DNA of 64,000 nucleotides, taken from NCBI GenBank assembly GCA_030694425.1, contig JAUXYI010000063.1:57150-121149 (forward strand), in the 5' to 3' direction. Positions within the stretch are counted from its first letter, which is position 1. Each line of letters opens with the position of its first letter. Both the position numbers and the translations under genes were made by a program. Source of the DNA: Thermodesulfovibrionia bacterium. GTDB lineage: Bacteria; Nitrospirota; Thermodesulfovibrionia; UBA6902; BMS3Bbin08. This document shows positions 2,542-32,778 of the stretch, in pieces. The notes below the pieces were generated by a model, which was not told where the DNA came from, searched no databases, and saw only the letters and a program-made list of their open reading frames with translations.

Positions 2542-3732
2542 ATGTGTGAAATGCATAGCAATAATAATGGTGGTGTCGGAATAAAAACAGTGCCTGTAAC
2601 AGAGGCAGTTGGCATGGTTATCGCCCATGATATTACTGAAATAATACCGGGGAAATTCAAGGGCAGGGCATTTAAAAAAGGACATATTATAAGAGAAGAG
2701 GATGTCTGTCATCTTCAGATGATCGGGAAGGAAAATCTTTTTATCCTTGAGATGAAAGAAGATGAGATGCACGAAAACGACGCAGCCTATGCCATTGCAA
2801 ATGCACTCGCCGGCAGCGGAGTAAAACTGGATGGGGAACCACGGGAAGGCAGGATAAATCTTGTTGCGGAAATAGACGGGTTATTAAAGGTTGACCGTAA
2901 AGCCCTTTTTAAATTCAATATGCTTGGCGAGGTTATGTGCGCTACGGTTCACAATAACTCAGTTGTTAAAAAAGGACAGGTTGTTGCTGGAACAAGGGCA
3001 ATCCCTCTTGTTGTAAAGAAATCTGTAATAGAGGAGGCAATGAGAATTGCAAGGGGGTCATCCCGACTATTCGGGACGAATCCTGGAACCCTCGAATCCT
3101 GTCATTCCACTGGTGTTATTGAAGTAAAAGAAATGAGAAAGCCAAAAACAGGAATAGTTATAACAGGCAACGAGGTCTATTACGGCAGGGTAAAAGATGC
3201 TTTTGGACCAGTAATAACAAAAAAAATAATGAGCATGGATGGGGAAGTCGTTGGTGTATATTTTGCGCCTGATGATGCTAAATATATTGAAGACAGGATT
3301 AAAGAATTGATAGCTGCCGGCGCTGACCTGATTATCACAACAGGAGGAATGTCTGTTGACCCAGATGATGTTACGAGATTTGCAATCAGGAATATCGGTG
3401 TTGATGAACTCTCATATGGAACCCCTGTGCTTCCAGGCGCAATGTTTCTTATTGCATACCTTGAAGACAGTAACAAGTTATCAGTAACGAGTAACGAGAT
3501 AAAACATGAAAAAGAAAACCCGTCACTTGTCACTCGTCACTCTGAACTTATCCCCATCATTGGAATACCTGCCTGCGGCATGTACAGCAATATAACTGTA
3601 TTTGATATTATACTGCCGAGGGTTCTTGCTGGTGAAAGAATTGGCAGGGAGGAATTGGCGGAACTTGGGCATGGCGGGTTATGTCTAAAATGTAGTGAAT
3701 GCCGCTACCCTGTTTGTCCTTTTGGAAAATAA
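2542..3732 (+). CDS. MoeA-like molybdopterin-binding protein (MoeA_N plus MoCF-biosynthesis domain) with Cys-rich C-terminus
   Basis: GIVITGNEV...ITTGGMSVDPDDVT is a MoCF_biosynth-type motif. Carries two in-frame repeat insertions (3055-3110 and 3470-3545). Confidence 0.55.
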   Translation: MCEMHSNNNGGVGIKTVPVTEAVGMVIAHDITEIIPGKFKGRAFKKGHIIREEDVCHLQMIGKENLFILEMKEDEMHENDAAYAIANALAGSGVKLDGEPREGRINLVAEIDGLLKVDRKALFKFNMLGEVMCATVHNNSVVKKGQVVAGTRAIPLVVKKSVIEEAMRIARGSSRLFGTNPGTLESCHSTGVIEVKEMRKPKTGIVITGNEVYYGRVKDAFGPVITKKIMSMDGEVVGVYFAPDDAKYIEDRIKELIAAGADLIITTGGMSVDPDDVTRFAIRNIGVDELSYGTPVLPGAMFLIAYLEDSNKLSVTSNEIKHEKENPSLVTRHSELIPIIGIPACGMYSNITVFDIILPRVLAGERIGREELAELGHGGLCLKCSECRYPVCPFGK

Positions 3733-8230: not shown

Positions 8231-8261
8231 TTGACTTTTTATGAAGCCGATAAGTTATAAT
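8231..8261 (+). promoter_or_regulatory. candidate sigma70 promoter (TTGACT ... TATAAT) driving riboswitch leader
   Basis: Hexamers read from sequence; 19-nt spacer. Confidence 0.4.
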
Positions 8262-8269
8262 CGTTCTGT

Positions 8270-8555
8270 CTTGTTCAGGTGCCCATTTTGGGCTTAAAGG
8301 GGAATCCCGTGAAAGACGGGAGCGGACCCGCCGCTGTAATCCTGATTCCGATTCATTCGGAATAAAAACTTCTATCAGTTAAAGCCACTTTTCCCGATGT
8401 ATCGGGGATGGGAAGGCAGATAGAAATCAGGAGAGCCAGAAGACCAACCTGGACAAAACCTCACATAAAAGCCTTCGTGGTATGAGGTTGTGAAGGTAAA
8501 AGTTATATAGCTTTTATCCCCAGCTTTCATAACGAGGGCTGGGGTTTTTATTTTT
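8270..8555 (+). promoter_or_regulatory. cobalamin (AdoCbl) riboswitch with terminator expression platform
   Basis: AAAGGGGAATCCCGTGAAAGACGGGAGCGGACCCGCCGCTGTAA core, GGGAAGGC, and B12 box AGCCAGAAGACC. Followed by a CCCCAGC...GCTGGGG hairpin plus T-run at 8517-8555. Confidence 0.7.
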
Positions 8556-10190: not shown

Positions 10191-11276
10191 ATGGAACTTA
10201 GTCTGGTTTTAAGGGAGATACCGGCAATAAATGAAAAATTCTATGAGACTGCTCAAAAACGTCTTGACAATTTAACCAAACCGCAGGGAAGTTTGGGAAG
10301 GCTTGAGGAATTTGCAAGGAGAATAGTTGCAATTACTGAAAACCCTCTGCCTGTGCTTGATAAGAAAGCAATTTTTACTTTTGCAGGAGACCACGGAGTT
10401 GCCCAAGAAGGCGTGTCTGCTTTTCCAAAAGAAGTCACCAGGCAGATGGTTCTTAATTTTCTGAATGGAGGAGCAGGAATAAATGTCCTCGCAAGGCATG
10501 GAGGAGCAGATGTTGTAGTGGTGGATATAGGAGTTGATTTTGATTTTGTTAATCCCCCTTCACCCCCCTTTGGTAAAGGGGGGATGGGATTTGTTTCAAA
10601 AAAGGTTGTGATGGGGACAAAAAATATAAGAAAAGGTTCTGCTATGACAAGAAATGAGGCAGAAAGGTGTATAGATGTCGGAATAGAATTAGCAAATGAA
10701 TATGCAGAGAGAGGTTATAAAATTTTTGGCACAGGAGACATGGGTATTGCGAATACAACACCCTCAAGCGCCATAGCAGCAGTGTTTACCGGAAAGTTCG
10801 TTGAGAAGGTTACTGGAAGAGGAACAGGAATAAACGATGACTTATGGATGAACAAGGTTCAGGTTATCAAAGACGCAATATCTATAAATAAACCTGATGT
10901 CTCAGACCCTATTGATGTACTTTCAAAAGTAGGCGGTGCGGAGATAGGCGGTATTGCTGGGTTGATTATAGGTGCTGCAGCAAACAGGATTCCAGTAGTT
11001 ATAGACGGTTTTATATCAACCGCAGGAGCGCTTATAGCGTATGCAATTGAACCAAAGACAAGAGACTATATGTTTGCAGCACATAATTCTCAGGAAATAG
11101 GACACAAGGCAATGCTTGATTACATAGGTCTAAAACCCATACTTGACCTTGAGTTAAGACTCGGCGAAGGGACAGGCGCTGCACTTGCGATGCTGATTAT
11201 TGAGGCAGGGGTAAAGATTTATAAGGAGATGGCAACTTTTGGAGAGGCAGGGGTAGCGACAAAAGATCATAAATAA
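10191..11276 (+). CDS. cobT: nicotinate-nucleotide--dimethylbenzimidazole phosphoribosyltransferase
   Basis: Full-length CobT pattern. In-frame C/G hairpin insertion at 10550-10595 ([12 protein letters not shown]). Confidence 0.9.
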
Positions 11277-11277
11277 G

Positions 11278-11300
11278 AACACAGAGCACAGAACACAGAC
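11278..11300. repeat. (CAGAACA)-type heptamer array, left inverted arm of IVS-protein cassette
   Basis: GAACACAGAGCACAGAACACAGAC. Its reverse complement is present at 11661-11693. Confidence 0.6.
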
Positions 11301-11313
11301 GAAGAGAATTAAA

Positions 11314-11661
11314 ATGCATAATTTTAGAAAACTTAAAATTTATCAAAAGGCAATTAATTTTGCTGTTGAGATATATAGACTTACAAAATCTTTTCCAAAA
11401 GACGAACTTTTTGGATTGACTAATCAACTTAGAAGAGCAGTAACATCTATCTCTTTAAATATTGCGGAGGGGAGTAGGAATAAATCAAGCAAAGAATTTA
11501 GACGATATTTAGAAATCTCTTTAAGATCAACTTATGAAGTAATGACATGTCTTGAGATTGCATTACGATTAAATTATTGCAAAGGGGAGGATTTTAAAAG
11601 ACTGATTGCAGAATCAGATGAAATAGCTGCAATGATAGTAGGTTTTTCTAAACAGCTTTAG
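11314..11661 (+). CDS. four-helix-bundle protein (23S rRNA intervening-sequence protein family)
   Basis: Sequence pattern ...KSFPKDELFGLTNQLRRAVTSISLNIAEG... is typical of the IVS four-helix-bundle family. Flanked by inverted heptamer arrays. Confidence 0.75.
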   Translation: MHNFRKLKIYQKAINFAVEIYRLTKSFPKDELFGLTNQLRRAVTSISLNIAEGSRNKSSKEFRRYLEISLRSTYEVMTCLEIALRLNYCKGEDFKRLIAESDEIAAMIVGFSKQL

Positions 11662-11693
11662 TCTGCATTCTGTATTCTGTGCTCTGTGTTCTG
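11661..11693. repeat. (TGTTCTG)-type heptamer array, right inverted arm of IVS-protein cassette
   Basis: GTCTGCATTCTGTATTCTGTGCTCTGTGTTCTG is the reverse complement of the 11278 arm. Confidence 0.6.
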
Positions 11694-12475
11694 ATGAGAA
11701 AGATTTTACTCGCATTCCAGTTTTTGACAATTATTCCTGTAAAGGAGATGAAAGATGTCTCTGAGAAAGAGATAGGGGGCGCTTCTGCTTTCTTTCCTTT
11801 AATAGGCTGGATTCAGGGGGCTTTATTTGTGGTATCAGCGGTTTTATTCTTAAAGATTTTCCCTCCAGAATTGGTAAATGGACTTCTTATCCTTGTAATT
11901 GTTACAACCAGCGGCGGTCTTCACCTTGACGGGCTTGCAGATACCTTTGATGCAGTTGCCTCAAAAGGAGATAGGGAAAAGAAGCTTTCTGTTATGAAAG
12001 ACAGCACAATCGGCCCTGTAGGTGTAATTGCGATAGTTCTGGCATTGCTTCTTAAATTCCTTGCCTTGAATAGTCTTTTTCACTATTCACTATTCACTAT
12101 TCACTATTTCTGATGCCTGTTTTTTCGCGATGGGTAATGGTTACAGCAATTTTTCACGGTAAATCAGCAAGACAGGACGGCATTGGAAAGATATTTATTG
12201 AAAATACAAAATTAAAGGAATTAGTGATAGCGACCCTGTTAGTTATTGGCTGCTGGTTATTAGTTGTTAGCTTCTTATTGTCTTCACTATTCACTATTCA
12301 CTATTCACTGTTTTTAGTGTCTATACCTGTACTTTACATCTTCAGTCTCGTATCAGTTTGGTTCTGCAATAAAAAATTTGGCGGTATGACAGGAGATACA
12401 TTCGGGGCGGTTTCCGAAATTTCAGAGATATTATTTTTGATAATGGCGGTAATATGCTCACAAGACTTTATTTAA
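11679..12475 (+). pseudogene. cobS: adenosylcobinamide-GDP ribazoletransferase (cobalamin synthase), split by a frameshift inside a (CACTATT)x4 tract at 12081-12108
   Basis: ORFs 11679..12113 and 12113..12475 together cover the full CobS homology (GLHLDGLADT...MKDS.IG then SRW...GGMTGD). The frame changes exactly within the heptamer array. A 5-copy or 2-copy array would restore the frame. Confidence 0.7.
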
Positions 12476-13209
12476 TAAGACACGGGGAAACAGAGGGCGG
12501 ACAACTAAACCGCTATAAAGGGCATATAGACGTGCCTCTTTCTGAGAATGGTATTAAGCAGATGGAACAGTTATCAGAATATATACGACAGAACACAGAA
12601 CATAGAACACAGAACATAGATAACCCCCCCATCCCCCCCTTAAATAAGGGGGGGCAAAGGGGGGTTACATCCGTTTACTGTTCTGATTTAAGCCGTGCTC
12701 TAAAAAGCGCTGAGATTATTGCTAAGCCGCATAAATTAAGGCCTATTGTTATGCCTGAGCTGAGAGAGCGTAATTTCGGCATATGGGAAGGCATGACATT
12801 TAATGAGATAAAGGAAAAATATCCGCAGGAATTTGATGCATGGGTGAGTAATCCTTTAAAATTCAGTCCCGTACAGGGAGAGAGCACTATTGAGGTAAGA
12901 GATAGGGTTTTAACTGCCTTAGATAAGATATTAAATAGTTTTAGGATTCAAGGGGTCAAGGAGTCAAGTGAAAAAATAAAAAATGCACTGGAACCCTCGA
13001 ACCCTCAAACCCTCGAACCCTTTTCTGTTGAAAATGTTGCCATCGTCTCCCACGGTGGAGTAAACAGAGTAATATTATGTCATTTCCTTGAAATACCTTT
13101 TGAGAATATATTCGGGATTGAGCAGGACTTTGGAGCGCTTAATATTGTTGAATTTCATGATAATTATCCGGTGGTGAAACTGATTAATTTTACTTGTCAC
13201 CCTGAGTGA
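12454..13209 (+). CDS. cobC: alpha-ribazole phosphatase (histidine phosphatase family)
   Basis: LYLIRHGETE motif. Two in-frame insertions (12590-12665 and 12985-13025). Confidence 0.8.
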   Translation: MLTRLYLIRHGETEGGQLNRYKGHIDVPLSENGIKQMEQLSEYIRQNTEHRTQNIDNPPIPPLNKGGQRGVTSVYCSDLSRALKSAEIIAKPHKLRPIVMPELRERNFGIWEGMTFNEIKEKYPQEFDAWVSNPLKFSPVQGESTIEVRDRVLTALDKILNSFRIQGVKESSEKIKNALEPSNPQTLEPFSVENVAIVSHGGVNRVILCHFLEIPFENIFGIEQDFGALNIVEFHDNYPVVKLINFTCHPE

Positions 13210-13268
13210 AACGAAGGGTCTCGTTTTCTTGAGATTCTTCCCCCGAACTGTCGGGGTCAGAATGACAA

Positions 13269-14903
13269 ATGGAGGCTTTATTGTCTAAGGCATTAATGAT
13301 ACAGGGAACAGGTTCTGGTGCTGGTAAAAGTGTCATTGTCGCGGGCATATGCAGGATATTCAGAGATATGGGAATTAAAGTAGCACCTTTTAAGGCACAG
13401 AATATGGCGCTGAATTCATTCATTACAAAAGAAGGCGGTGAAATAGGCCGGGCACAGGCATTCCAAGCAGAGGCCGCAGGCATTGAACCTTTTAATGACA
13501 TAAATCCGATATTGCTCAAGGCAACAGGAGAATCTGGATGTCAGGTGATTTTAAACGGCAAGGTTTATGGGAATATGACTGCAATTGATTATTACGCTTT
13601 TAAAGATACAGCTTGGAAGGCAGTCACATCTGCTTATGACAAACTTTCACAAAATTACGATGTTATTGTGATTGAAGGTGCTGGCAGTCCCGCAGAAATT
13701 AATCTGCAGAAAGAAGAAATAGTAAATATGAGTGTAGCACGTTATACAGGCGCGCCTGTTATCCTCGTCGGAGATATTGATAAAGGAGGTGTTTTTGCAT
13801 CTTTTTACGGGACCATAGGCCTACTTGATGGCGATGCTGATTACATAAAGGCATTCATTGTGAACAAATTCAGAGGGGATATAGGAATACTCCGCCCCGG
13901 TCTGAGGATGATAGAAAACAAAACAGGCAGGCCTGTTATAGGCGTGATTAATTATTTTGGAGACCTCGGACTCCATGAGGAAGATGCAATACCAATTGAA
14001 CGGCTTATCCCGAAACGTCGGGATGAACCGTTTAAAGCGATAAAGATTGTAGTTTTGAGATTAAGATATATAGCAAACTTCACAGATTTCGACCCTTTCA
14101 TGTATGAGCCTGGGGTTGAACTTAAATACTCATTAAGGGAAGAGGATATTAACAATGCAGACCTTATCATTATCCCTGGCTCAAAGAATACTGTAAGTGA
14201 TTTATTGTTCTTGAGACAAAATGGTATAGAAGAGTGTGTAAAGTTAGCGGTTAATAAAGGAATCCCCCTTATTGGAATTTGCGGTGGATATCAAATGCTC
14301 GGAAAGAAAATTTTTGATCCTTACAACATAGAAAGCAGTGAGAAAGAAGTAGAAGGCATGGGATTTCTTGATATTGTTACAAGCATTGAAAAGACAAAGA
14401 CTACGTATCAGGTAGAGGCAGAACTTATAAATGGTTCAAAATTGTTTAATGTTGTTCAAGATAGTTCAAACGATGGTTTTAAGAATTTAAAAGGCTACGA
14501 GATCCATATGGGAGTAACTACAGGTGATATTGGTTTATTTAGATTATATAGATACCAGAACACAGGACTCAGAGCACAGAGCACAGAAAATCCCCCCTCA
14601 CCCCCCTTTAACAAAGGGGAGCTGGGGGGATTTGAAGTCCTTGACGGATCAATGAAAGGCAATGTCTGGGGGATTTACATACATGGGCTGTTTGACAATG
14701 ATAGTTTCAGGACTGCGCTGCTTAACTCATTGAGATACAGAAAAGGATTACCGCCTATTAAGGGAACAATCAACTATTTTGAACTCAAAGAAAATGCAAT
14801 AGACAAATGGGCAGATGTTTTAAGAAGCAGTGTTGATATATGTTTTATTTTGAGGCTACTGGATATGGAATATTGCAAGGAGCATCTAATCAGAGGTATT
14901 TAA
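13269..14903 (+). CDS. cobQ: cobyric acid synthase
   Basis: N-terminal ATPase plus C-terminal GATase domain. In-frame insertions at about 13990 and 14555-14640. Confidence 0.9.
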   Translation: MEALLSKALMIQGTGSGAGKSVIVAGICRIFRDMGIKVAPFKAQNMALNSFITKEGGEIGRAQAFQAEAAGIEPFNDINPILLKATGESGCQVILNGKVYGNMTAIDYYAFKDTAWKAVTSAYDKLSQNYDVIVIEGAGSPAEINLQKEEIVNMSVARYTGAPVILVGDIDKGGVFASFYGTIGLLDGDADYIKAFIVNKFRGDIGILRPGLRMIENKTGRPVIGVINYFGDLGLHEEDAIPIERLIPKRRDEPFKAIKIVVLRLRYIANFTDFDPFMYEPGVELKYSLREEDINNADLIIIPGSKNTVSDLLFLRQNGIEECVKLAVNKGIPLIGICGGYQMLGKKIFDPYNIESSEKEVEGMGFLDIVTSIEKTKTTYQVEAELINGSKLFNVVQDSSNDGFKNLKGYEIHMGVTTGDIGLFRLYRYQNTGLRAQSTENPPSPPFNKGELGGFEVLDGSMKGNVWGIYIHGLFDNDSFRTALLNSLRYRKGLPPIKGTINYFELKENAIDKWADVLRSSVDICFILRLLDMEYCKEHLIRGI

Positions 14904-16018
14904 TGATAGAATCAGCCACACTTACATTAGCATATTTCTTAGATCTGGCAATAGGCGACCCGAGATGGCTTCCCCATCCCGTAAGGATTACGGGAAAGGC
15001 TATAACAAAAACTGAAAATTTCTTAAGACGCATAATACAGAATACAAAACACAGAACACAGCCTGCCCCGCTTTGCGGCCTGCCCTGCTTCGCCGAGCGA
15101 GGACAGGGAGCAAGGCCGGGGAACATAGATAACCCCCCAACCCCCCCCATAGCAAAGGGGGGTGAGGGGGGATTTGAAAAACTGGCTGGGATTTTCCTTG
15201 TTTTAATTATAGTAGGATCCACTTATGGATTATTTTTTGTTATTAATTTACTTCTCACTTCTCACTTCTCACTTCTCACTTTTATTTTCCTTGTCTATCT
15301 CATCTCCACTACGCTTGCAACGCATGAGCTTCTGAAATCAGCGCATTCAGTGATTAATGCCTTAAAAGCTGACCATATTGATAATGCAAGAAGAAATCTC
15401 AGTTTCATAGTTGGCAGAGATACTACTCAACTCAGCCGAAAAGACGTATTAAAGGCAACAGTTGAAACCCTTGCTGAAAATGCCTCTGATGGTATAATTG
15501 CCCCTCTTTTTTATTTCTCAATCGGCGGTTTGCCTCTTGCGATGGCGTATAAGGCAATAAACACCCTTGATTCAATGGTTGGATATAAAAATGAAAAATA
15601 TAAAGATTTTGGATGGGCATCAGCACGTCTTGATGACTCCGCAAATTATATACCGGCAAGGATAACAGGAATCCTTATTGTTATTTCATCTGCTATCGTA
15701 TCCCGTTCACTGTTCACTGTTCACTGTTCACTGTCTACAATGCTCCGTGATGGTAGAAATCACTTAAGCCCAAATAGCGGAGTTCCCGAGGCAGCAATGG
15801 CAGGCGCACTCGGCATAAGACTTGGAGGATCATCAAGGTATGGAGGAATAATCGTAGATAAACCATATATTGGGGAGAAAAGACAGATGGATAGAACACA
15901 GAGCACAGACGAAATACATTTAGAAGCTTCTATGAAAGCTGTTACGATTATAAAGGTCACATCTTTTCTTGGATTAGTTAGTGCATTGGCGATTTTATAT
16001 TTGAGGAATAATTTATGA
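14903..16018 (+). CDS. cbiB: adenosylcobinamide-phosphate synthase
   Basis: CbiB/CobD membrane-protein pattern. ATG at 14903 overlaps the cobQ stop (TAATG). Three in-frame insertions. Confidence 0.8.
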   Translation: MIESATLTLAYFLDLAIGDPRWLPHPVRITGKAITKTENFLRRIIQNTKHRTQPAPLCGLPCFAERGQGARPGNIDNPPTPPIAKGGEGGFEKLAGIFLVLIIVGSTYGLFFVINLLLTSHFSLLTFIFLVYLISTTLATHELLKSAHSVINALKADHIDNARRNLSFIVGRDTTQLSRKDVLKATVETLAENASDGIIAPLFYFSIGGLPLAMAYKAINTLDSMVGYKNEKYKDFGWASARLDDSANYIPARITGILIVISSAIVSRSLFTVHCSLSTMLRDGRNHLSPNSGVPEAAMAGALGIRLGGSSRYGGIIVDKPYIGEKRQMDRTQSTDEIHLEASMKAVTIIKVTSFLGLVSALAILYLRNNL

Positions 16019-17271
16019 AAGTACAGAACTCAGAATATAGAATTCAGAATATAGACAAAGCTCCCCTCCCCCTCGCCCCCTCCCGCAAGGGGAGGGGGGT
16101 TAATTTGACACCCTCCCCATTGAAGGGGGAGGGTAAGAGAGGGGGTGATAGTCTGGGTTCTGGGTTCTGTATTCTGAGTTCTGATACAAGTCATGGTGGT
16201 AATATTTACAGGCTTGCAGAGGAACTCGGGTTGCCTGAAAGTAAAATCATTGATTTCAGTGCCTCTATCAATCCCCTCGGTGTTTCAAAAAGAGTGGGGG
16301 ACAAGATTAAAAAAGGGCTGAAAGATTTGTCTCACTATCCAGACCCTGATACCAAAGAATTGAGAGGGAAAATCGCACAATACCATGATATAGAACCAGA
16401 GACGCTACTCTGCGGCAACGGAAGCACCGAATTAATCTATCTTGTACCGAGGGCATTCAAACCTGAAAAGGTTCTTATACCTTCACCTACATTTTCAGAA
16501 TATGAAAGGGCATGCAACTTCAGTAACGAGTTACGAGTTACGAGTTACGAGTTACGGGAAAAAAATAATTTTGATATAAACACAGATACATTTATTCAAA
16601 CTATGGACAAACTTGTCACTCGTCACTCGTCACTTGTCACTGCTGTTATGGCGTTTTTGTGTAATCCGAACAACCCTACAGGAAGGCTTATGAAGAAAGA
16701 AGAAGTATTAAAGATTGCAGAAGCTGCGAAGAAATTAAAATGTCTTTTGATAGTTGATGAGGCTTTTATTGATTTTCATCCAGAGGAATCTGTGATTAAA
16801 GACACTCATGATAATCCTTATTTGATAGTTTTACGGTCAATGACAAAGTTTTATGCACTCACAGGGTTAAGAGTCGGTTATGGGGTCTTCCCCTCTTACC
16901 TCATCAACAAACTAAAAGAATTTAAAGAGCCTTGGACCGTAAATACACTGGCTCAAAAAGCAGCAATGGCAGCACTCGGAGACAATGAATATATAGGTAA
17001 GACCCTCCGGTTAATTAAGAGTGAAAAAGATTTTCTTGAAGGAAGTTTCAGAAAAATAGGTATTGAGTTTTTTCCATCAGATGCCAATTTTTATCTTTTG
17101 AAATTCAATAATGCAAATGAGATAATTCTCTCTCTCCTCAAAAAGGGCATTCTTGTTAGGGATTGCTCAAACTTTAAGGGACTTAATGGGTCATATATCA
17201 GGATTGCAGTCAAATCAAGGGAAGACAATATGCAATTGCTGGAGGAGCTATCTTTATGGCAAAAGGCTTAG
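16015..17271 (+). CDS. cobD: L-threonine-O-3-phosphate decarboxylase (class I/II aminotransferase fold)
   Basis: HGGNIY start motif and PLP-lysine region. The true start may be downstream of the composite repeat. Confidence 0.8.
   Translation: MKVQNSEYRIQNIDKAPLPLAPSRKGRGVNLTPSPLKGEGKRGGDSLGSGFCILSSDTSHGGNIYRLAEELGLPESKIIDFSASINPLGVSKRVGDKIKKGLKDLSHYPDPDTKELRGKIAQYHDIEPETLLCGNGSTELIYLVPRAFKPEKVLIPSPTFSEYERACNFSNELRVTSYELREKNNFDINTDTFIQTMDKLVTRHSSLVTAVMAFLCNPNNPTGRLMKKEEVLKIAEAAKKLKCLLIVDEAFIDFHPEESVIKDTHDNPYLIVLRSMTKFYALTGLRVGYGVFPSYLINKLKEFKEPWTVNTLAQKAAMAALGDNEYIGKTLRLIKSEKDFLEGSFRKIGIEFFPSDANFYLLKFNNANEIILSLLKKGILVRDCSNFKGLNGSYIRIAVKSREDNMQLLEELSLWQKA
16024..16183. mobile_element. composite MITE-like element: inverted (CAGAAYA)n arms flanking two C-rich/G-rich hairpins
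   Basis: Left arm 16024-16056, right arm 16151-16183. Interior is CCCCTCCCCC...GGGGAGGGGGG. Lies in frame at the annotated N-terminus of cobD. Confidence 0.5.
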
Positions 17272-18701
17272 TCATAGCAGGCACACACAGCGGCTGCGGC
17301 AAAACAACCGTGACTCTCGGCATTCTCGCTGCCTTAAAGAAAAAGGGATTGCGTGTGCAGTCATTCAAGGCAGGCCCTGATTTTATAGACTCAGGTCTTC
17401 ACAGACTTATTACAGGCAGGCATTCAAGAAACCTTGATTTGTGGATGTGCGGAGAAGATTATGTCAGTGATTGTTTTTACAGGCATTCCATGGATGCCGA
17501 TATATCGGTGGTGGAAGGGGTTATGGGGCTGTATGACGGGGAATTCAGCACTGCAAGGCTTTCAAGCGTGTTAAACCTGCCTGTTATCCTTGTTGTTGAT
17601 GCCTATGGAATGGCAGAGAGCGCGGGCGCGGTGGTTAAAGGATTTGTCAAATACAGTGACCAGATACAAGTAACGAGTAACGAGTTAAAGAATAAAAAAT
17701 ATTCCGAAGACTCATCACTCGTCACTTGTCACTTATCACTTAATTGGTTAGGTGTTATCTTTAACCGCGTGGCATCTGAGAAACATTATAAACGTCTGAA
17801 AGATAGTGTTCATAACATTTCTGTGTTTGGCTATCTCCCGCGGGAGCTGGATTTTGAAATTCCTCACAGGCATCTCGGGTTAACCGTTGCAGAGGAAAAT
17901 CCCATCACGGTAGAGAACATAGAAAAACTTGCAGATACGGTTTTGAAGTATATAGATGTTGAGACCATAATTCAAAAGACAGGAGACAGGGCACAGAAAA
18001 CAGACAAAGGGGAAAATAGTCTGTCATCTGTGTTCTGTGCCCGGTCTCCTGAAGTTAAAATTGCCGTAGCCTGTGACAGGACATTCTGCTTTTATTACGA
18101 GGATAATCTGGATTTATTAAAAGATGCAGGGGCAGGGATAATAACATTCAGCCTTATTTCTGATACCAAAATTCCTGATAATGTTGATGCCTTATACATT
18201 GGAGGGGGATATCCAGAATTATATGCAAAGGAACTGTCTGAAAATGCATCAATGCTAAAATCCATTAGCGATTGGGCTAATTCATGGAAACCAATATACG
18301 CTGAATGCGGAGGGCTGATGTATCTCTCAAGAGGGATTTATGATTTTGAAGGAAACTTCCACAGAATGGCGCAGGTATTCCCTTTTGAGACGGTTATGAA
18401 AAAAGACAAGGTAAATCTCGGGTATAGAGAAATAAGACTGCTCACTGACTCTATTCTGGGGATACAAGGTGATGTTCTACGGGGCCACGAATTTCACTAT
18501 TCAGAGATAACAGACAGAGCACAGAACACAGAACACAGAACACAGACAAAAAAGATTTACTCAATGAAAGATAACAAGAACTATAATCTTTATAACGAAG
18601 GATACAGATTTAAAAACACTCTTGCAAGTTATGTGCACGTGCATTTCGGTTCAAACCTTAATATTGCCAAAAACTTCGTAAATTTTCTCAGGGAGGCATA
18701 A
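17256..18701 (+). CDS. cbiA: cobyrinic acid a,c-diamide synthase
   Basis: CbiA/CobB pattern. Two in-frame insertions. Confidence 0.9.
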   Translation: MAKGLVIAGTHSGCGKTTVTLGILAALKKKGLRVQSFKAGPDFIDSGLHRLITGRHSRNLDLWMCGEDYVSDCFYRHSMDADISVVEGVMGLYDGEFSTARLSSVLNLPVILVVDAYGMAESAGAVVKGFVKYSDQIQVTSNELKNKKYSEDSSLVTCHLSLNWLGVIFNRVASEKHYKRLKDSVHNISVFGYLPRELDFEIPHRHLGLTVAEENPITVENIEKLADTVLKYIDVETIIQKTGDRAQKTDKGENSLSSVFCARSPEVKIAVACDRTFCFYYEDNLDLLKDAGAGIITFSLISDTKIPDNVDALYIGGGYPELYAKELSENASMLKSISDWANSWKPIYAECGGLMYLSRGIYDFEGNFHRMAQVFPFETVMKKDKVNLGYREIRLLTDSILGIQGDVLRGHEFHYSEITDRAQNTEHRTQTKKIYSMKDNKNYNLYNEGYRFKNTLASYVHVHFGSNLNIAKNFVNFLREA

Positions 18702-19771
18702 TGGATGCAATACTTCTTATAGGACATGGAAGCAGGCTGTCAGAGGCAAACAATGCGCTTAAACAGGTTGCTTCTATGGTGAAAGATTTAGGAAACGTTC
18801 CTTTGGTTGAAACAGCATTTTTACAGTTTGCAAAGCCTGATTTTTTTGAGGCTGTCTCTACATGCGTTTCAAGCGGAGCCAGGAAGATAATTGTACACCC
18901 CTATTTCCTTTATAAAGGGAGGCACTTTGAGGAAGACCTTACTGAAATGGTTGGTAAAGCACGGAAAAGATATTCAGATATTGAGTTTATCCTTACAGAA
19001 CCCCTCGGTGTACACGAAAACATCGCAAAGGTTGTCCTTGAAAGGTCAATGAAAGACATCAAACCAGTGAAAATACTTAAACCGCATGAGATAGAGGAGA
19101 AGAGTTTTGAGATAATCACCAGAGAGATGGGGAAGACAGACTTCAGGGATATTGAGACGCCGATAGTAAAAAGGGTGATACATGCAACGGGAGATTTTGA
19201 CTTTGCCAAAAACATGCGTTTTCACTCTGATGCAGTGGAGGTAGGAATTAAAGCAATAAAAAAGGGAATGGATATTCTGGTGGACGTAAAAATGGTTGAG
19301 GCGGGGATAAACAAGAGATTACTTCAGAAATGGAGAGGGAAAGTCATATGTAAAATTCAGAACACAGAACACAGACTACAGACTACAGATAACCCCCCCA
19401 TCCCACCCTTAAATAAGGGGGGGATGGGGGGGGTTACAGAAAGGGGGGGTGAGGGGGAATTTGAGACCGATACCCAAACGAGAGCGGAACAGGGAATTGA
19501 ATCAGCAGTTAAAGAAAACAATAACATCGGCATTGTTGCAATAGGTAATGCACCTACAGCTCTCTACAGGACAATGAAGTTAATAAGAGATAATGGTTTT
19601 AACCCTGAGCTTGTGGTAGGCGTGCCTGTCGGTTTTGTCAAGGCAGTTGAATCAAAAGAGGTTCTTTTGCATATGGAATATCCTTTTATAACATCACTGG
19701 GAAGAAAGGGTGGAAGTACAGTTGCAGCGGCAATTGTAAATGCATTATTGAAAATAGCGGAAGGGGGGTGA
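18701..19771 (+). CDS. cbiXC: fusion of sirohydrochlorin cobaltochelatase (CbiX small type) with precorrin-8X methylmutase (CbiC)
   Basis: N-terminal 125 aa is CbiX-like (ILLIGHGSR). The remainder is CbiC (HATGDFDF...GNAPTALY). In-frame insertion at 19355-19470. Confidence 0.7.
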   Translation: MDAILLIGHGSRLSEANNALKQVASMVKDLGNVPLVETAFLQFAKPDFFEAVSTCVSSGARKIIVHPYFLYKGRHFEEDLTEMVGKARKRYSDIEFILTEPLGVHENIAKVVLERSMKDIKPVKILKPHEIEEKSFEIITREMGKTDFRDIETPIVKRVIHATGDFDFAKNMRFHSDAVEVGIKAIKKGMDILVDVKMVEAGINKRLLQKWRGKVICKIQNTEHRLQTTDNPPIPPLNKGGMGGVTERGGEGEFETDTQTRAEQGIESAVKENNNIGIVAIGNAPTALYRTMKLIRDNGFNPELVVGVPVGFVKAVESKEVLLHMEYPFITSLGRKGGSTVAAAIVNALLKIAEGG

Positions 19772-19829
19772 TAAATAAAAAGTTCAAAAATGGGAAGTAA
19801 GAAGCAGAAATAAAAAAATCAAGGGAATA

Positions 19830-19980
19830 AAAACGAGGAAAGGGGTGAGAATCCCCTGCTGTCCCGCAGCCGTAAAGGGAACGAAAACCCAACAGAAGTC
19901 ACTGTGCCGAATCTTCGACATGGGAAGACGGGTAAGTAGGCAGCCCTGAGCCGGAAGACCGTTTGTTCCCGCAACCTCGA
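19830..19980 (+). promoter_or_regulatory. cobalamin riboswitch (variant)
   Basis: GTGAGAATCC, CCCGCAGCCGTAAAGGGAA, GTCACTGTGCC, GGGAAGACGG, GCCGGAAGACCG. Upstream of the outer-membrane protein / cbiMNQO block. Confidence 0.55.
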
Positions 19981-19996
19981 CGGAAGGAGAAAAAAA

Positions 19997-21547: not shown

Positions 21548-21978
21548 AAAAACAGATTGGTTTGGCGGGATTTTTCAGACGCATTTTCGTCATTCCGCAC
21601 TTGATGCGGAATCCAGTCTTTTTTCTGGATTCCCGCTTTCGCGGGAATGACGCCTATCGGAACAGGATACACTATGGAATAACCATTTTAATTTTATCTG
21701 TTCTCGTCACTTGTCACTTCTCACTTGTCACTGCCGCCGAGTGGGGTGGTGTTGACGAATCAGTTGTGGAGAAATATGCAAAGGAGCACGGCAGGGAGGC
21801 AAGAGAGCCCTTGATAAACACTGATCAGGGAGACTTGCTTCTATTTGTGTTTTTGCTCGCAGGCGCCATCGGAGGATTTGCAGCGGGGTATTACTGGAGG
21901 GTGCTGACAGAGAACAGAGCAGAAAGCAGTAAAAACAGAACAAACACTTACGAGCCTTTAGCTCAAAAAAAGGAGTAG
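21544..21978 (+). CDS. cbiN: cobalt transport protein CbiN
   Basis: ATGA overlap with cbiM. C-terminal TDQGDLLLFVFLLAGAIGGFAAGYYW. A palindromic repeat is inserted in frame near the N-terminus. Confidence 0.7.
   Translation: MKKQIGLAGFFRRIFVIPHLMRNPVFFLDSRFRGNDAYRNRIHYGITILILSVLVTCHFSLVTAAEWGGVDESVVEKYAKEHGREAREPLINTDQGDLLLFVFLLAGAIGGFAAGYYWRVLTENRAESSKNRTNTYEPLAQKKE
21588..21650. repeat. GTCATTCCGC...GCGGGAATGAC palindromic element (RFRGND / VIPAKAGIQ-type), in frame in cbiN
   Basis: Read directly. Antisense spurious ORF at 21484..21672. Confidence 0.5.
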
Positions 21979-22055
21979 AAATATAATCCCCTTTCCCCCC
22001 TTTTCTAAAAGGGGGGAAAGGGGGGACTTGAAAACCGTTTTCGGAGCAAAGACAA

Positions 22056-22823: not shown

Positions 22824-23788
22824 AAAGAACACAGAACACAGAACACAGACTAAAGACTAAAGATAACCCTCCCATCCCCTCCTTATTTAAGGGGGGGCAA
22901 AGGGGGGTTACCGCAAAGGGAAGTGAGGGGGGATTTAGGAATGCTTTGTCGGTTGAGAAACTCTCATACAAGTACCCTGACGGGACGTCTGCGTTGACTG
23001 ATATTACCTTTAATGTAAGGAAAGGTAAGTTTATCGGACTGCTTGGAGCAAACGGCTCCGGGAAAACAACGCTTCTTCGCGCGATGGATGGACTTATGAA
23101 GAACTTTGAAGGCGGTGTTTATCTGGAAGGGATTGATATAAGAAAGCTCACGCCGAAGCAGATTTACAAAAAGATCGGGCTTGTGTTTCAAAACCCCGAT
23201 GACCAGCTCTTTGCGCCCACTCTCTTTGAGGATGTTGCCTTCGGTCCTTTGAATATGGGTTTTGACGCAGGAGAAGTTAAGAAAAGGGTATTAAATGCCT
23301 TAAATGAAGTTGAGCTTACAGGTCTTGAAAAAAAATCCGTTCACAATCTGAGCTTTGGTCAGAGGAAGCGCGCGTGCATCGCAGGACTTCTTGCGATGGG
23401 ACATGAAATGCTTTTGCTTGATGAACCGACAGCGGGGCTTGACCCGATGGGCGAATACAGGATGATGAAGCTGCTTCAGAAATTGAACAAAGAAAACGGC
23501 GTGACAATTGTCATGGCGACTCACAGCGTGGACCTTGTGCCTCTTTTTCTTGATGAGCTTTACATCCTGAGTAAAGGCAGAATCACAAGAGGCGGCACAC
23601 CGGAGGAGGTGTTTAATGCGCCTGAAGATATGTCAAATGTTAAACTCAGGCTTCCCCACATCGCAGAGCTGATTTATAAACTGAAGCATGAAGATAAACT
23701 GGACTTTGAACGTATTCCCCTCACTATTGGTGAGGCAAGAAGGGAGATCCTGAAAATATATACATACAGAAAAGGTGATGGAAGATGA
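22811..23788 (+). CDS. cbiO: cobalt ECF transporter ATPase
   Basis: Walker A GANGSGKTT, signature LSFGQRKR, Walker B LLLDEP. N-terminal 40 aa derive from a heptamer array plus a C/G hairpin. Confidence 0.85.
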   Translation: MDDLKRTQNTEHRLKTKDNPPIPSLFKGGQRGVTAKGSEGGFRNALSVEKLSYKYPDGTSALTDITFNVRKGKFIGLLGANGSGKTTLLRAMDGLMKNFEGGVYLEGIDIRKLTPKQIYKKIGLVFQNPDDQLFAPTLFEDVAFGPLNMGFDAGEVKKRVLNALNEVELTGLEKKSVHNLSFGQRKRACIAGLLAMGHEMLLLDEPTAGLDPMGEYRMMKLLQKLNKENGVTIVMATHSVDLVPLFLDELYILSKGRITRGGTPEEVFNAPEDMSNVKLRLPHIAELIYKLKHEDKLDFERIPLTIGEARREILKIYTYRKGDGR

Positions 23789-24586: not shown

Positions 24587-25858
24587 GTGAGTATGACTAA
24601 AATTCATGTCATAGGCATTGGCTATAAACCACTTGATAAAGGTGCAAGGGAAGTTATCTTGAATTCATCAGTCATCCTTGCGTCCAACAGGCTTTTTGAA
24701 GTTTTTCAGGGATATAAGGAATATGAAAAAGTGAAAGATAAAGTAAAAGTGATAAACAATGTAGATGAGACAATAAAATTCATTCACTCGTCACTCGTTA
24801 CTCGTCACTCGTCACTCATCACACTTCTTGCCTCCGGAGACCCGCTTTTTTTTGGTATCGGTAGAAGGGCTGTGAGAGAATTTGGAAAAGACATCGTGAA
24901 AATACTGCCTGATCTATCATCTATTCAGATGGCATTTGCAAAGATAAAAGAACCGTGGGATGATGCATTCCTCATGAGCCTTCATGGCGGCCCTGACCCG
25001 ACAAAAAGAAGGAAGCTGAAATATGAACTAAGTGACATTTCTGAACTACTCGCTAAACATAATAAAATTGCTATCCTGACTGACAAAGAAAATAACCCTC
25101 AGAAGATTGCACAGGTTCTTAACTTGTCACTTGTCACTCGTCACTCGTCACTTATTATGTTTGTCTGTGAACGGCTCGGTTATCCTGATGAGAAAATAAC
25201 AGAAGGAACACCTGAGGAAATTACAAAGATAGAGTTTTCAGACCCAAATGTTGTGATAATTCAGAGCACAGAACACAGAACACTTAACACAGACTTAAAA
25301 TTTGGATTAACAGAAAGCGAAATTCTTCATTCTAAGGGACTCATAACAAAGGACGAGGTCAGAGCTGTAACAATTCAAAAATTAAGGCTCCCGCAAAAGG
25401 GCATATTCTGGGATATTGGTGCTGGCTCTGGATCAGTATCAATAGAAGTAGCAAGGCTTTATCCTGAATTAAAAGTTTTTGCCATCGAAAGAGACGAAGA
25501 ACAGGTTAATCATATCAAGGAAAACATGATTAGACGCAACACATCTAATATTGAAATAATAAAAGGTGATGCCCCTGAAACCCTGGCAAATCTTCCACAT
25601 CCGGACAGAGTATTTATAGGAGGAAGCGGTGGAAGGATTAAAGAGATAATAGAATTTGTGAGCAATAAGATATCGTCTGGAGTCATCGTAATAAATGCCA
25701 CTACAATAGAGACACTGAATGGGGCAGTTCAACATCTTGAGAACAATGCATTTAATGTGGGAGTCTCTGAAATTTCTGTTTCCAGAGCAAAAACCGTGGG
25801 TGGCAAAAGACACATGAGTGCTTTAAATCCTGTATTTATTATAACAGGAGAAAGATAG
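24587..25858 (+). CDS. cbiET: precorrin-6Y C5,15-methyltransferase (decarboxylating), CbiE-CbiT fusion
   Basis: N-terminal methylase domain plus C-terminal SAM methyltransferase (DIGAGSGS). Three in-frame insertions. Confidence 0.85.
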   Translation: MSMTKIHVIGIGYKPLDKGAREVILNSSVILASNRLFEVFQGYKEYEKVKDKVKVINNVDETIKFIHSSLVTRHSSLITLLASGDPLFFGIGRRAVREFGKDIVKILPDLSSIQMAFAKIKEPWDDAFLMSLHGGPDPTKRRKLKYELSDISELLAKHNKIAILTDKENNPQKIAQVLNLSLVTRHSSLIMFVCERLGYPDEKITEGTPEEITKIEFSDPNVVIIQSTEHRTLNTDLKFGLTESEILHSKGLITKDEVRAVTIQKLRLPQKGIFWDIGAGSGSVSIEVARLYPELKVFAIERDEEQVNHIKENMIRRNTSNIEIIKGDAPETLANLPHPDRVFIGGSGGRIKEIIEFVSNKISSGVIVINATTIETLNGAVQHLENNAFNVGVSEISVSRAKTVGGKRHMSALNPVFIITGER

Positions 25859-27437: not shown

Positions 27438-29301
27438 AGGCAACAAGACAGAAGTCAGAAGTCAGCCTTCAGCCTTATTTTACATAACAGACAAGGGACT
27501 TATGCTTGCCAAAAAGCTCAAAGAACTTTTCCCTAATTCACAGATGGTGAAATTTAAATCAGAGGCTGTTTCTGAGGTCTGGAGCGAGTGCAAAAATCTA
27601 ATATTCATCATGGCAGCAGGAATTGTTGTCAGGACTATCGCCCCCTTAATAAAAGGCAAAAGGACAGATCCTGCTGTTGTTGTGCTGGACGAGAAAGGGG
27701 AATATGCAATCAGCCTTTTAGGTGGACATCTTGGAGGTGCAAATAAGATTGCAAAGGAGATTGCTGATTTCTTAGGAGGCAGAGCGGTAATAACAACAGC
27801 ATCTGATGTAAATAATCTGCCAGCCATAGATTTATGGGCAAGAGAAAATAATTTAGTGGTAGAAAATTGGGATTTGCTGCCGAAAATTGGTACGCTGCTT
27901 TTAAACAAGGGTTTTTTGAAAGTCTATGCGGATATAGGTATTAAATTGACTGACAAATTACAAAAAACAGACAATCCTGAAACTGCTGACATCCTTATTA
28001 CAAACAAAAACAACCTGTTTGCTCATACACCCATTCATCTTTATTTAAGACCCAAAAATCTTATTATTGGTATTGGCTGTAACAGCGGAACATCAGCAGA
28101 TGAAATAGAAGACGCTGTTAAAAGTATACTGGCGGAAAACAATCTATCATTTCTATCGGTTTACTCCATAGCGACCATTGATAAAAAAAGCAGCGAGCCT
28201 GGTCTGATTGCATTCACTGAAAAGTATGGTTTTAAGGTTAAAACGTTCACATCCGACGAACTGAATAATGTCAAAGGTGTAGTGAAATCAGAAGCTGCAT
28301 TCAAAGCAACTGGAGCCAAAGCAGTAGCAGAGCCAGCAGCATTACTCGCATCAGGAGCAAAGAAACTGCTTGTGCCAAAACAAAGGATAGGAAATGTCAC
28401 GATAGCAATAGCACTCAAAGGCAGTAACGAGTTACAAGTAACAAGTAACAAGTTAAAAAATAAAGGCTCGTCACTCGTCACTCGTCACTCGTCACTTTAC
28501 ATCGTTGGCACTGGCCCGGGAAGCATTGAACATATTACGCCTTATGCCCAAAATGCAATAAGAAACTCCGATGTTATAGTTGGATACGGCACATATCTTG
28601 AACTAATACAGGAGTTAATTAAGGATAAAGAAGTCGTATCCACAGGCATGACGCAGGAGATAGACAGATGTAAAAGAGCAGTGGAACTGGCAATGTCAGG
28701 AAAAACCGTTTCTATCATAAGTGGTGGAGACCCTGGTATCTATGCCATGGCAGGATTGGTGTTTGAAATATTGAAAAACAGTAACGAGTTACAAGTAACA
28801 AGTAACAAGTCAGTAGAGAGTCGGGAGTCAAAAAACTCGTCACTCGTCACTCGTCACTCGTCACTTATTGATGTTGAGGTTATTCCCGGTATTTCTGCCT
28901 TAAATGCCTGTGCAGCAAGGCTCGGTGCGCCACTCATGCATGATTTTGCATGCATAAGTCTTTCTAACAGGCTTACGTCTTGGGATTTGATAGAAAAAAG
29001 ACTTGAGGCCGCTACAACGGCTGATTTTGTGATTGTGCTTTATAACCCAAAGAGCATGGGCAGGCAGGGGCATATCAATAAGGCAAGGGATATCATCTTG
29101 AGATATAGAACTCCTGAAACACCTGTGGGAATAGTAAAGTCTGCAATGAGGGAGAACGAAAAAATAATCATTACAAATCTTAAAGACATGCTTGACCACG
29201 ATATTGATATGCAGAGCACGGTAATTATCGGGAATTCGCAAACATTTTTATGGGAAGGGTGGATGATAACACCGAGGGGATATGCAAACAAAAAACAGTG
29301 A
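27421..29301 (+). CDS. cbiGH: CbiG fused in frame to precorrin-3B C17-methyltransferase CbiH
   Basis: CbiG homology to about aa 340. A repeat insertion at 28425-28500 replaces the cbiH start. Then LYIVGTGPG...GGDPGIY. Confidence 0.8.
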   Translation: MNTENKGNKTEVRSQPSALFYITDKGLMLAKKLKELFPNSQMVKFKSEAVSEVWSECKNLIFIMAAGIVVRTIAPLIKGKRTDPAVVVLDEKGEYAISLLGGHLGGANKIAKEIADFLGGRAVITTASDVNNLPAIDLWARENNLVVENWDLLPKIGTLLLNKGFLKVYADIGIKLTDKLQKTDNPETADILITNKNNLFAHTPIHLYLRPKNLIIGIGCNSGTSADEIEDAVKSILAENNLSFLSVYSIATIDKKSSEPGLIAFTEKYGFKVKTFTSDELNNVKGVVKSEAAFKATGAKAVAEPAALLASGAKKLLVPKQRIGNVTIAIALKGSNELQVTSNKLKNKGSSLVTRHSSLYIVGTGPGSIEHITPYAQNAIRNSDVIVGYGTYLELIQELIKDKEVVSTGMTQEIDRCKRAVELAMSGKTVSIISGGDPGIYAMAGLVFEILKNSNELQVTSNKSVESRESKNSSLVTRHSSLIDVEVIPGISALNACAARLGAPLMHDFACISLSNRLTSWDLIEKRLEAATTADFVIVLYNPKSMGRQGHINKARDIILRYRTPETPVGIVKSAMRENEKIIITNLKDMLDHDIDMQSTVIIGNSQTFLWEGWMITPRGYANKKQ

Positions 29302-32509: not shown

Positions 32510-32563
32510 TTGTAGCCGCAGACTTTAGTCGGCGTTCTTAAACTGTGATTGACAGTTCAAATA

Positions 32564-32778
32564 GGTATTCCAGAGGAATCTCGTGAAAAACGAGAACTGC
32601 CCCGCAACTGTAAAGGGAGCGAAAACCTAAAAAGGCAGTGAAGAGTAAACAGTGAATAGTTAAGAGTTACAGAATTCAAAAACTTTTAACTTTCAACTGC
32701 TTTTAAGTCACTGTCCCGAAGCGTCGGGACGGGAAGGCAGGTGAGTAGAGAGCCCTAAGTCAGGAGATTCCGAATACC
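32564..32778 (+). promoter_or_regulatory. cobalamin riboswitch with no downstream gene (orphan)
   Basis: P1 GGTATTC...GAATACC. GTGAAAAACGAG, CCCCGCAACTGTAAAGGGAGC, GGGAAGGC, AGTCAGGAGA. Next plus-strand product is only a 6-aa ORF. Confidence 0.6.

Follow-up and report, generated by a model that had tools for sequence, protein, structure and literature searches.

A candidate 23S rRNA-type intervening-sequence element, bounded by inverted heptamer arrays, between cobT and cobS of a Thermodesulfovibrionia bacterium

Why should a small gene of the intervening-sequence (IVS) protein family PF05635, wedged between the cobalamin genes cobT and cobS, be wrapped in inverted arrays of a 7-nt repeat? 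The question arises in a stretch of 64,000 nucleotides (hereafter, the window) from a metagenome-assembled genome (MAG) of a Thermodesulfovibrionia bacterium (Nitrospirota). A first-pass annotation, made from the sequence of the window alone, had described the gene as cargo carried between the arrays. Pfam confirmed the gene and both of its neighbors, and the arrays were recovered as inverted arms (Table 1). Our interpretation of the module at positions 11273-11695 is nevertheless a different one: it is best explained as an IVS element of the 23S rRNA kind that lives in an mRNA operon, where an RNA stem would allow it to hitch-hike on the host transcript. We give this reading slightly better than an even chance.

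The module (423 nt) takes up everything between the stop codon of cobT and the start codon of cobS. A repeat search returned inverted arms of 27 nt at 11273-11299 and 11669-11695, which are 93% complementary and spaced by 369 nt, and Tandem Repeats Finder (TRF) reported period-7 arrays at 11276-11299 and 11662-11693. Read directly from the sequence, the arrays correspond to GAACACAGAGCACAGAACACAGAC at 11277-11300 and GTCTGC...CTGTGTTCTG at 11661-11693. With up to 1 mismatch, CAGAACACAGA occurs 39 times in the window, compared to 1.03 expected occurrences, and none of 100 shuffles reached 39. Furthermore, a second, independently made assembly of this organism (Logan SRR13727538) matched the module base for base. 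The arms are interlocked with the coding sequences: the left arm begins with a unit that overlaps the cobT stop codon TAA (11274-11276), the first right-arm unit, TAGTCTG, holds the stop codon TAG of the IVS gene, and the last unit abuts the ATG of cobS at 11694, which has no Shine-Dalgarno sequence of its own. As the spacer between the left arm and the IVS open reading frame (ORF) measures only 13 nt, there is no room for a promoter before the ORF, and no promoter-like sites were found on the + strand from cobT to the IVS ORF, nor terminator-like sites inside the module. A promoter-less gene that is wedged between the cobT stop and the cobS start must therefore be transcribed with the cob operon. 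The predicted RNA fold of the module has a minimum free energy of -103.6 kcal/mol (z=-4.3) and is closed by an arm stem of 18+5 bp. Rfam, in both E-value and gathering modes, covered the arms by no family, the only matches in the window being cobalamin riboswitches.

The encoded protein scored 131.8 bits against PF05635 (cut-off 33.8) and 125.9 bits against TIGR02436 (cut-off 24) and matched PDB entry 2gsc (E=1e-17); its gene is the only PF05635 gene in the window. It is basic (pI 9.6), and the R-x3-S-x3-N-x2-E stripe reported as a motif of the family (PMC3936711) is present as R41, S45, N49, and E52. Judging from its sequence relatives 2gsc and 2rld, each of which was deposited with five chains, the protein may form a homopentamer of four-helix bundles. 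The gene is functional and kept by strong purifying selection, with a ratio of nonsynonymous to synonymous substitutions (dN/dS) of 0.04-0.13 against its orthologues. Among the orthologues from the cobT|cobS junction, the IVS protein is 83-88% identical, compared to 73-76% for cobT, 47-70% for cobS, 55-58% for cobC, and 62-70% for cobQ.

Inverted arms of this kind are general to the family. For 160 loci with relatives of the gene (L001-L160), taken from species-representative genomes and metagenomes, an inverted-repeat score was obtained by aligning the 120 nt upstream of an ORF to the reverse complement of the 120 nt downstream, with a threshold of at least 11. This was reached by 84% of 86 PF05635 ORFs and by 4% of 450 other ORFs from the same loci (Mann-Whitney p=6e-41), as well as by 80% of 146 unique PF05635 modules, which represent many phyla. 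Median arm length across modules was 31 nt. In both flanks of the 146 modules, autocorrelation reached 0.40 for lag 7 and 0.37-0.38 for lag 14, compared to 0.26 in control windows from the same loci, and only 2/429 control windows exhibited periodicity. The repeat unit differs between lineages: Nitrospirota and anammox bacteria have CAGAnnn, Sphingobacteriaceae AGTCCGRA or GTTCATR, Planctomycetota CAAAGGNA and GAGTGGY, and Bacteroidales TTAGCNG. It is the protein clade and not the host genome that the arm unit follows, since divergent paralogues within a single genome have arms that are unrelated (6-mer Jaccard 0.008, n=4), while similar proteins from different genomes have arms in common (6-mer Jaccard 0.11). 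Within the CAGA clade, the innermost right unit is TAGTCTG and embeds the IVS stop codon in 12/16 modules.

The same arm design is found around a copy that resides in ribosomal RNA. On plasmid AZO_p2 of Azospirillum lipoferum 4B, a PF05635 ORF (2899-3222 of locus L180) lies inside a 23S rRNA gene (Rfam LSU, 1684-4882 of L180), between arms of 36 nt that are 86% complementary, 397 nt apart, and composed of CAGAGGA CGGATGA CAGAGGA CGGAGGA heptamers. The ORF comes after the conserved AGCGTAATAGCTCACTGG...ACCGAAGCTGCGG stretch, which in E. coli 23S rRNA precedes helix 45. Rfam detected no rRNA in the window, and none of five rRNA hallmark motifs was found in loci L001-L160.

In protein-coding surroundings, the modules ride on operons in the sense orientation. 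The ORFs on both sides were co-directional with the IVS gene for 61 modules and both opposite for 3 (binomial p=5e-15). The distance from the upstream stop codon to the start of the left arm has a median of 0 nt (interquartile range -5 to +7, n=67), and the gap between the end of the right arm and an in-frame start of the gene downstream a median of 11 nt. Modules sit between functional partners of an operon, such as cobT|cobS, cobC|cobQ, aguB|aguA, gatB|tpiA, fadB|fadA, and argC|argD, and likewise cas1|cas2, cas3|cas1, cas6|cas4, and cmr2|cmr3 (loci L161-L166, L007, L087-L089, L005, L177, L178). PF05635 has repeatedly been labeled "CRISPR-associated", across all CRISPR types (PMC3936711, PMC10910872). 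Since modules occupy the junctions of many operons, cas operons included, this published association may be nothing but a habit of inserting at operon junctions, i.e., hitch-hiking. The PADLOC anti-phage defence models matched 0 families in the window. A phage collection yielded one weak match in 50,697 records, and phages are therefore no evident vector.

Comparison of individual junctions revealed occupied, empty, and decayed sites. At cobT|cobS, an intact module is present in the window and in L001-L004, L081, and L082, while L104 harbors a 5'-truncated pseudogene with both arms kept and L006 the left array alone (TAAgaactcagaacacagagcacagac-agc-ATG). The cobC|cobQ junction is pristine in L001, where the 2 genes overlap as TAATG; it holds a second module, 74-78% identical to the query, in L002, L006, L083, L085, and L086, and both arms with only about 12 remaining codons in L003. 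The junction before cbiQ carries an intact module in L084 and a degenerate CAGA array with a C/G-rich hairpin in the window. In an anammox-type cas operon (L161/L162), a 3'-truncated copy between cas3 and cas1 precedes an intact copy between cas1 and cas2. All three truncated copies have one deletion end at the inner edge of an arm. L161 and L162 had also been considered as a recent insertion/deletion pair, which was rejected, as their sequences are identical and only the gene calling differs. The window itself contains an unrelated element of about 75 nt at cobC|cobQ (13192-13265; cttGTCACCCTGAGTGAAACGAAGGGTCTC ... GGGGTCAGAATGACAAa), bounded by CTTGTCA/TGACAA.

Moreover, L001:3931-4430 and L002:3931-4430 differ by a single mismatch over a tract of about 500 nt, which comprises the module with about 30 nt on its upstream and about 50 nt on its downstream side; the module tract is 100% identical. 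The 2 loci belong to different species representatives, their flanking cobT DNA is 70-85% identical, and identity drops beyond the tract. A near-identical tract in diverged flanks indicates a recent horizontal exchange or co-conversion at the same site, with a chimeric low-coverage contig as a less likely alternative. Relatives that are 70-79% identical were found in MAGs labeled Kuenenia, Brocadiales, and Actinobacteria, and the Kuenenia copy (L005) has CAGA-type arms.

Within the window, the arms recur without the gene (Table 1). The first-pass annotation had noted that both arms enclose a C/G double hairpin alone at 16024-16183, which is correct; a further ORF-less hairpin at 17969-18062, which it had missed, consists of the left arm, a Shine-Dalgarno-like spacer, the stop-codon unit, and the right arm, with the ORF gone. 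Common to both is a skeleton in which a left CAGAnnn array, with AGAC as its last bases, is followed by a brief A/G-rich spacer, TAGTCTG, and a right array. That the bare hairpins and the copy with the gene are members of one family, as had been proposed, is borne out by this skeleton, TAGTCTG included, and by the intermediates in L104, L003, L161/L162, and L006. The 5 copies described as one-armed (those in cobC, cobQ, cbiB/cobD, the cbiX-cbiC ORF, and the cbiO ORF) are real as far as their arrays are concerned, but all 5 arrays have a C/G hairpin behind them, and the copy in cobC keeps one right unit. In our reading, gene and arms together form the complete unit and the bare hairpins are its decay products, which reverses the direction originally proposed. 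The term "cargo" is also at odds with gene and arms being the native unit across phyla, with an arm type that follows the protein clade, and with the same arm design in the 23S rRNA copy. A likeness to miniature inverted-repeat transposable elements, which had been suggested as well, found no support either: there was no target-site duplication in a comparison, weak because the sites are diverged, of occupied and empty junctions, no partner transposase beside the modules (except for unrelated IS elements that interrupt Nostoc copies), and no near-identical dispersed copies, with paralogues within one genome being about 74% identical or less at the protein level.

Table 1. Coordinates of the module at cobT|cobS, its host genes, and related arrays and hairpins in the window.
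Feature	Position	Strand	Details
cobT, upstream host gene	10191-11276	+	Pfam DBI_PRT (PF02277) E=8e-140; TAA at 11274-11276
Left arm AAGAACA CAGAGCA CAGAACA CAGAC	11275-11300 (feature listed 11273-11300)	+	Inner end CAGAC; pairs with 11669-11695 in predicted RNA fold
Spacer GAAGAGAATTAAA	11301-11313, 13 nt	+	Purine-rich, Shine-Dalgarno-like stretch
IVS-protein gene, 115 aa	11314-11661	+	PF05635 E=1.4e-38; TIGR02436 E=7e-37
Right arm, five units TAGTCTG CATTCTG TATTCTG TGCTCTG TGTTCTG	11659-11693	+	Sequence, repeat search, TRF
cobS, downstream host gene	11694-12475	+	PF02654; Pfam CobS positions 1-114 and 118-207; start inferred from orthologues
Left-type array + GATAA + C/G hairpin + one right unit (CTGTTCTG)	12589-12690 (array 12589-12620)	+	In frame inside cobC
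Left-type array + C/G hairpin	14556-14632 (array 14556-14587)	+	Inside cobQ
Left-type array + GC-rich insert + C/G hairpin	15045-15175 (array 15045-15062)	+	Inside cbiB/cobD
ORF-less derivative, both arms, two C/G hairpins in loop	16024-16183	+	Inner ends TAGAC and TAGTCTG
ORF-less derivative	17969-18062	+	CAGGAGA CAGGGCA CAGAAAA CAGAC, aaaggggaaaa, TAGTCTG TCATCTG TGTTCTG TGCCCGG TCTCCTG; cbiA inter-domain linker
Solo CAGAACA array ending CAGAC	18514-18547	+	In frame in cbiA
Left-type array (CAGAACA x2, CAGACTA x2, CAGATAA) + C/G hairpins	19358-19457 (array 19358-19389)	+	Inside cbiX-cbiC ORF
Degenerate CAGA array + C/G hairpin	21906-22025	+	Junction before cbiQ
Left-type array + C/G hairpins	22825-22932 (array 22825-22863)	+	Start of cbiO ORF
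Solo CAGAACA array	25262-25293	+	TRF

In the reading that we favor, the arms would pair in the polycistronic transcript as a stem of about 23-27 bp, by which the cassette would be looped out and the cobT stop and the cobS start brought together, with translation of the two genes possibly coupled. The stem might then be cut by RNase III, as has been shown experimentally for IVSs in rRNA, and/or be opened by ribosomes finishing cobT. By either route, host gene expression would survive the insertion, and the cassette would gain a stem-capped mRNA of its own. With insertion being harmless, we propose that cassettes can last at operon junctions, pass horizontally between genomes, and lose their interior by deletion, which would leave ORF-less heptamer hairpins and solo arrays. 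The basic protein, which is under strong purifying selection, probably recognizes its own arm repeats. An RNA stem is favored by the rRNA-borne copy together with the published RNase III data, by the co-orientation with the host genes, by the cobT stop and the cobS start without Shine-Dalgarno sequence at the base of the stem, and by the literature on the STRRs (short tandemly repeated repetitive elements) of cyanobacteria.

Several observations weigh against this reading. The arms of the CAGA clade conserve only a 4-nt core (87-98%), and the variable positions show weak mirroring of their order (Stouffer z=1.85 in a unit-order permutation test); with a conserved core and weak mirroring, sequence-specific recognition fits at least as well as pairing. 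Arm mismatches in mRNA-borne modules show no wobble bias (53 G.U compared to 57 A.C on the sense strand). A second family of heptamer hairpins in the window, with AGTAACG/AGTAACA on the left and CGTCACT/TGTCACT on the right, pairs well only on the minus strand, because its mismatches on the + strand are A.C/C.A in 20 cases and G.U in 2. In L174 (Pseudanabaena galeata plasmid pPg_01, 45868-47012), the arrays around a PF05635 gene between cas6 and cas4 are direct and not inverted, comprising (AAAAGCT)x15 upstream and (AAAAGCC)x10 downstream. Finally, no target-site duplication was seen between the occupied (L002, L006, L083, L085, L086) and pristine (L001) cobC|cobQ junctions, the sites being so diverged that this is a weak test. 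The weak covariation, the missing wobble bias, and the direct arrays of L174 fit repeat recognition, perhaps by the protein itself, and a life cycle at the DNA level.

Such a life cycle is known from repetitive extragenic palindromic (REP) doublets forming hairpins (REPINs) and their REP-associated tyrosine transposases (RAYTs). If the module were a mobile element of this type, the arrays would be multi-site binding ends, and the pentameric IVS protein would mobilize both the gene-bearing unit and the hairpins with the help of a host nuclease or recombinase. We regard this as rather unlikely, though several observations speak for it: besides a 4-nt core repeated at 7-nt intervals in both arms, with hardly any pair-specific covariation and no G.U excess, it accounts for an arm type that co-varies with the protein clade even inside one genome, for the counterpart PF05635 clade that each hairpin family of the window has elsewhere, for the deletion ends exactly at the inner edge of an arm in the three decayed copies, for the resemblance of the L001/L002 tract to a co-conversion tract, and for a basic protein (pI 9.6) with a conserved polar stripe. 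A role of the ORF in mobility was proposed by Ralph & McClelland, as quoted in PMC4990558. However, no nuclease or recombinase fold is known for PF05635, neither target-site duplications nor near-identical dispersed copies were found, a DNA transposon needs neither strict co-orientation nor the stop/start geometry, and the rRNA-borne copy must act as an RNA stem. It should be noted that pairing in the transcript and events at the DNA level are not mutually exclusive.

Two further explanations were considered. That the cobalamin operon has domesticated the gene for an accessory or regulatory role, with the arms as local expression signals only, would agree with its occurrence between cobT and cobS in no fewer than 7 related assemblies (the window, L001-L004, L081, L082), with an IVS protein more conserved than its neighbors, and with a dN/dS of about 0.05-0.1. 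We consider it improbable, as relatives of 70-79% identity reside at cas1|cas2, cobC|cobQ, cbiN-like|cbiQ, and in other contexts, distant members in polyamine, fatty-acid, arginine, and glycolysis operons, and the gene is missing from cobT|cobS in L006 and reduced to a pseudogene there in L104. Mere coincidence, by which heptamer arrays made by slippage in this genome happen to flank an ordinary small gene, might be suspected from the dozens of arrays of several unit families in the window, many of them inside ORFs. It is most improbable, given that about 80% of the family is flanked alike in genomes without such arrays elsewhere (with control values of 0.26 at lag 7 and 2/429 periodic windows) and that the right arm embeds the IVS stop codon in 12/16 clade members.

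The window contains further repeats besides those of the CAGA type. A family of C/G hairpins of about 40 nt (CCCCCCnnnCCCCCC-TTTnnnAAA-GGGGGGnnnGGGGGG-ATTT), located mostly within ORFs, is represented at 10554, 12624, 14592, 15133, 16068, 19393, 21995, 22891, 44564, 47287, and 47845. The copy in cobC is translated in frame as NPPIPPLNKGGQRG, and the same site is occupied in L001, L002, and L006 and empty in L003, while a second loop of cobC holds a different repeat element in each genome. These hairpins represent an in-frame invasion of housekeeping proteins that resembles the Rickettsia palindromic elements (RPEs). Copies of the second heptamer-hairpin family mentioned above lie inside + strand cob/cbi ORFs (3483-3542, 16522-16641, 17669-17742, 28423-28497, 28780-28866, and 29297-29383); one of them fuses cbiG and cbiH into a single ORF of 626 aa, and one splits the methylase domain of cbiH. 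This family matches the arms (AGTGACA/AGTAACA) of another PF05635 clade, found in a metagenome between glmU and glmS (L120). In the second half of the window, inverted pairs of AT-rich heptamer arrays (AAAATCA, AAAATGC, and similar) are located at 47587-47693, 56837-56955, 60477-60584, and 61911-62004 and may constitute a third hairpin family. In 2 other loci, GC-rich mini-hairpins (gccttgccgcaggcaggtc; gtgcctgcctgtccggtaggcagg) are nested in the right arm directly after TAGTCTG (L082, ~840-880; L086, ~2850-2890), and the IVS arms themselves thus appear to serve as insertion targets for other mini-elements.

As for the host operon, three cobalamin riboswitches on the + strand (Rfam; 8260-8466, 19794-19981, and 32513-32788) partition the long cob/cbi gene array. 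cobS is split into 2 ORFs (11694-12113 and 12113-12475) that meet at a (TTCACTA)4.3 array, which extends from 12079 to about 12108-12113. The frame is restorable by 1 additional heptamer or the removal of 2 heptamers (12283-12309 is listed alongside), and the orthologue in L003 is one continuous frame. Because the independent Logan contig ends within the (TTCACTA) array, the frameshift may be an assembly artifact in array copy number and not a sign of a pseudogene or of phase variation.

PF05635 is a very large family of unknown function that annotators named after the intervening sequences of rRNA. Our results suggest that most of the sampled members are self-contained cassettes at the stop/start junctions of any operon, heptamer wrapper included. 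If true, the classical rRNA IVS would be linked to a much larger population of elements, the CRISPR association of the family would be explained as hitch-hiking, heptamer hairpin repeats such as the cyanobacterial STRRs would acquire a testable origin, and the flanking repeats would become a concrete candidate ligand of the protein. For annotators, it is a caution that the housekeeping genes of such lineages contain repeats that are translated in frame. A broader view, which we put forward only tentatively, would treat PF05635 genes and their arrays as one widespread and so far unrecognized class of promoter-less, operon-riding elements, with the 23S IVS as a special case, the gene-less hairpins (including STRRs, unexplained since 1990) as REPIN-like progeny, and an Avd-like pentameric protein that recognizes its own repeats and drives or maintains the elements.

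Parts of this picture are already known, namely that 23S rRNA can carry ORF-bearing IVSs with inverted repeats at their termini, that cyanobacteria have STRR hairpins, that cas loci contain PF05635 genes, and that there is homology to Avd. Literature searches for inverted or heptamer repeats in connection with PF05635, TIGR02436, S23 ribosomal protein, or STRR retrieved no paper describing the flanking arrays. Within the searchable literature, the general occurrence of inverted 7-nt arrays around PF05635 genes, their sense orientation at operon stop/start junctions, the co-variation of arm type with protein clade, and the interpretation of heptamer hairpins as ORF-less remnants thus appear to be undescribed.

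Among known systems, RPEs are reportedly small palindromic repeats that lie in frame inside protein-coding genes, and the ORF-less and C/G hairpins of the window operon resemble them in their in-frame insertion. They differ in sequence, in host, and in their link to a protein-coding parent element. The Avd protein of diversity-generating retroelements is a distant homologue with a pentameric four-helix-bundle fold and a basic character, whereas the window protein scores only 21.6 bits against NF033474 (cut-off 80) and is encoded between cobT and cobS, with no reverse transcriptase or template and variable repeats nearby. In REPIN/RAYT systems, a gene is said to be flanked by cognate inverted repeats, with ORF-less hairpin copies in the same genome; each gene clade has its own repeat family, inheritance is mostly vertical, and the RAYT is an HUH (IS200/IS605-like) transposase. 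The IVS gene shares the cognate inverted repeats, the ORF-less hairpins in the same genome, the clade-specific repeat family, and a mostly vertical inheritance. In contrast, PF05635 has no known catalytic fold, its arms are tandem heptamers and not REP palindromes, and the modules are set in sense orientation at stop/start junctions.

Cyanobacterial STRRs are hairpins of 7-bp repeats that occur between operon genes such as hupS-hupL, for which transcript stabilization or translational coupling has been proposed (PMC2670836), and Vioque 1997, as cited in PMC4046671, placed an STRR inside the RNase P RNA gene. The window module likewise consists of tandem heptamer units that form hairpins, in the predicted fold, at an operon junction. 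Moreover, the PF05635 matches on plasmids stem mostly from Nostocales, taxa known for STRRs, and several of these copies are flanked by such inverted heptamer arrays. STRRs, however, have been described as gene-less and from heterocystous cyanobacteria, while the window derives from a Thermodesulfovibrionia MAG; in the searchable literature, no link between STRRs and PF05635 was found.

The closest likeness is to the IVSs of 23S rRNA. That of Coxiella measures 428-444 nt and has a 28-bp terminal stem, which RNase III cuts in the middle, with an S23p ORF in the loop; the S23p protein is reported as probably not made, and excision of rRNA IVSs by RNase III is known from Coxiella, Leptospira, and Alphaproteobacteria (PMC4990558). 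By comparison, the window element has a gene under strong purifying selection, its excision by RNase III would be a parallel drawn from these cases, and it lies between 2 protein-coding operon genes, not in helix 25 or 45 of 23S rRNA. In all of these elements, a PF05635 ORF occupies the loop of a terminal inverted-repeat stem, with arms of 27 nt here, 28 bp in Coxiella, and 36 nt in Azospirillum, the latter likewise being arrays of CAGA/CGGA heptamers. The sizes are similar as well (423 nt here, 428-444 nt in Coxiella, and 469 nt in Azospirillum, with about 430-760 nt as the usual range of ORF-bearing IVSs), and the elements have no promoter of their own and are transcribed with the host gene. 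With its PF05635 ORF, its arm stem, and its size, the element between cobT and cobS thus has the defining anatomy of an ORF-bearing IVS in everything except location.

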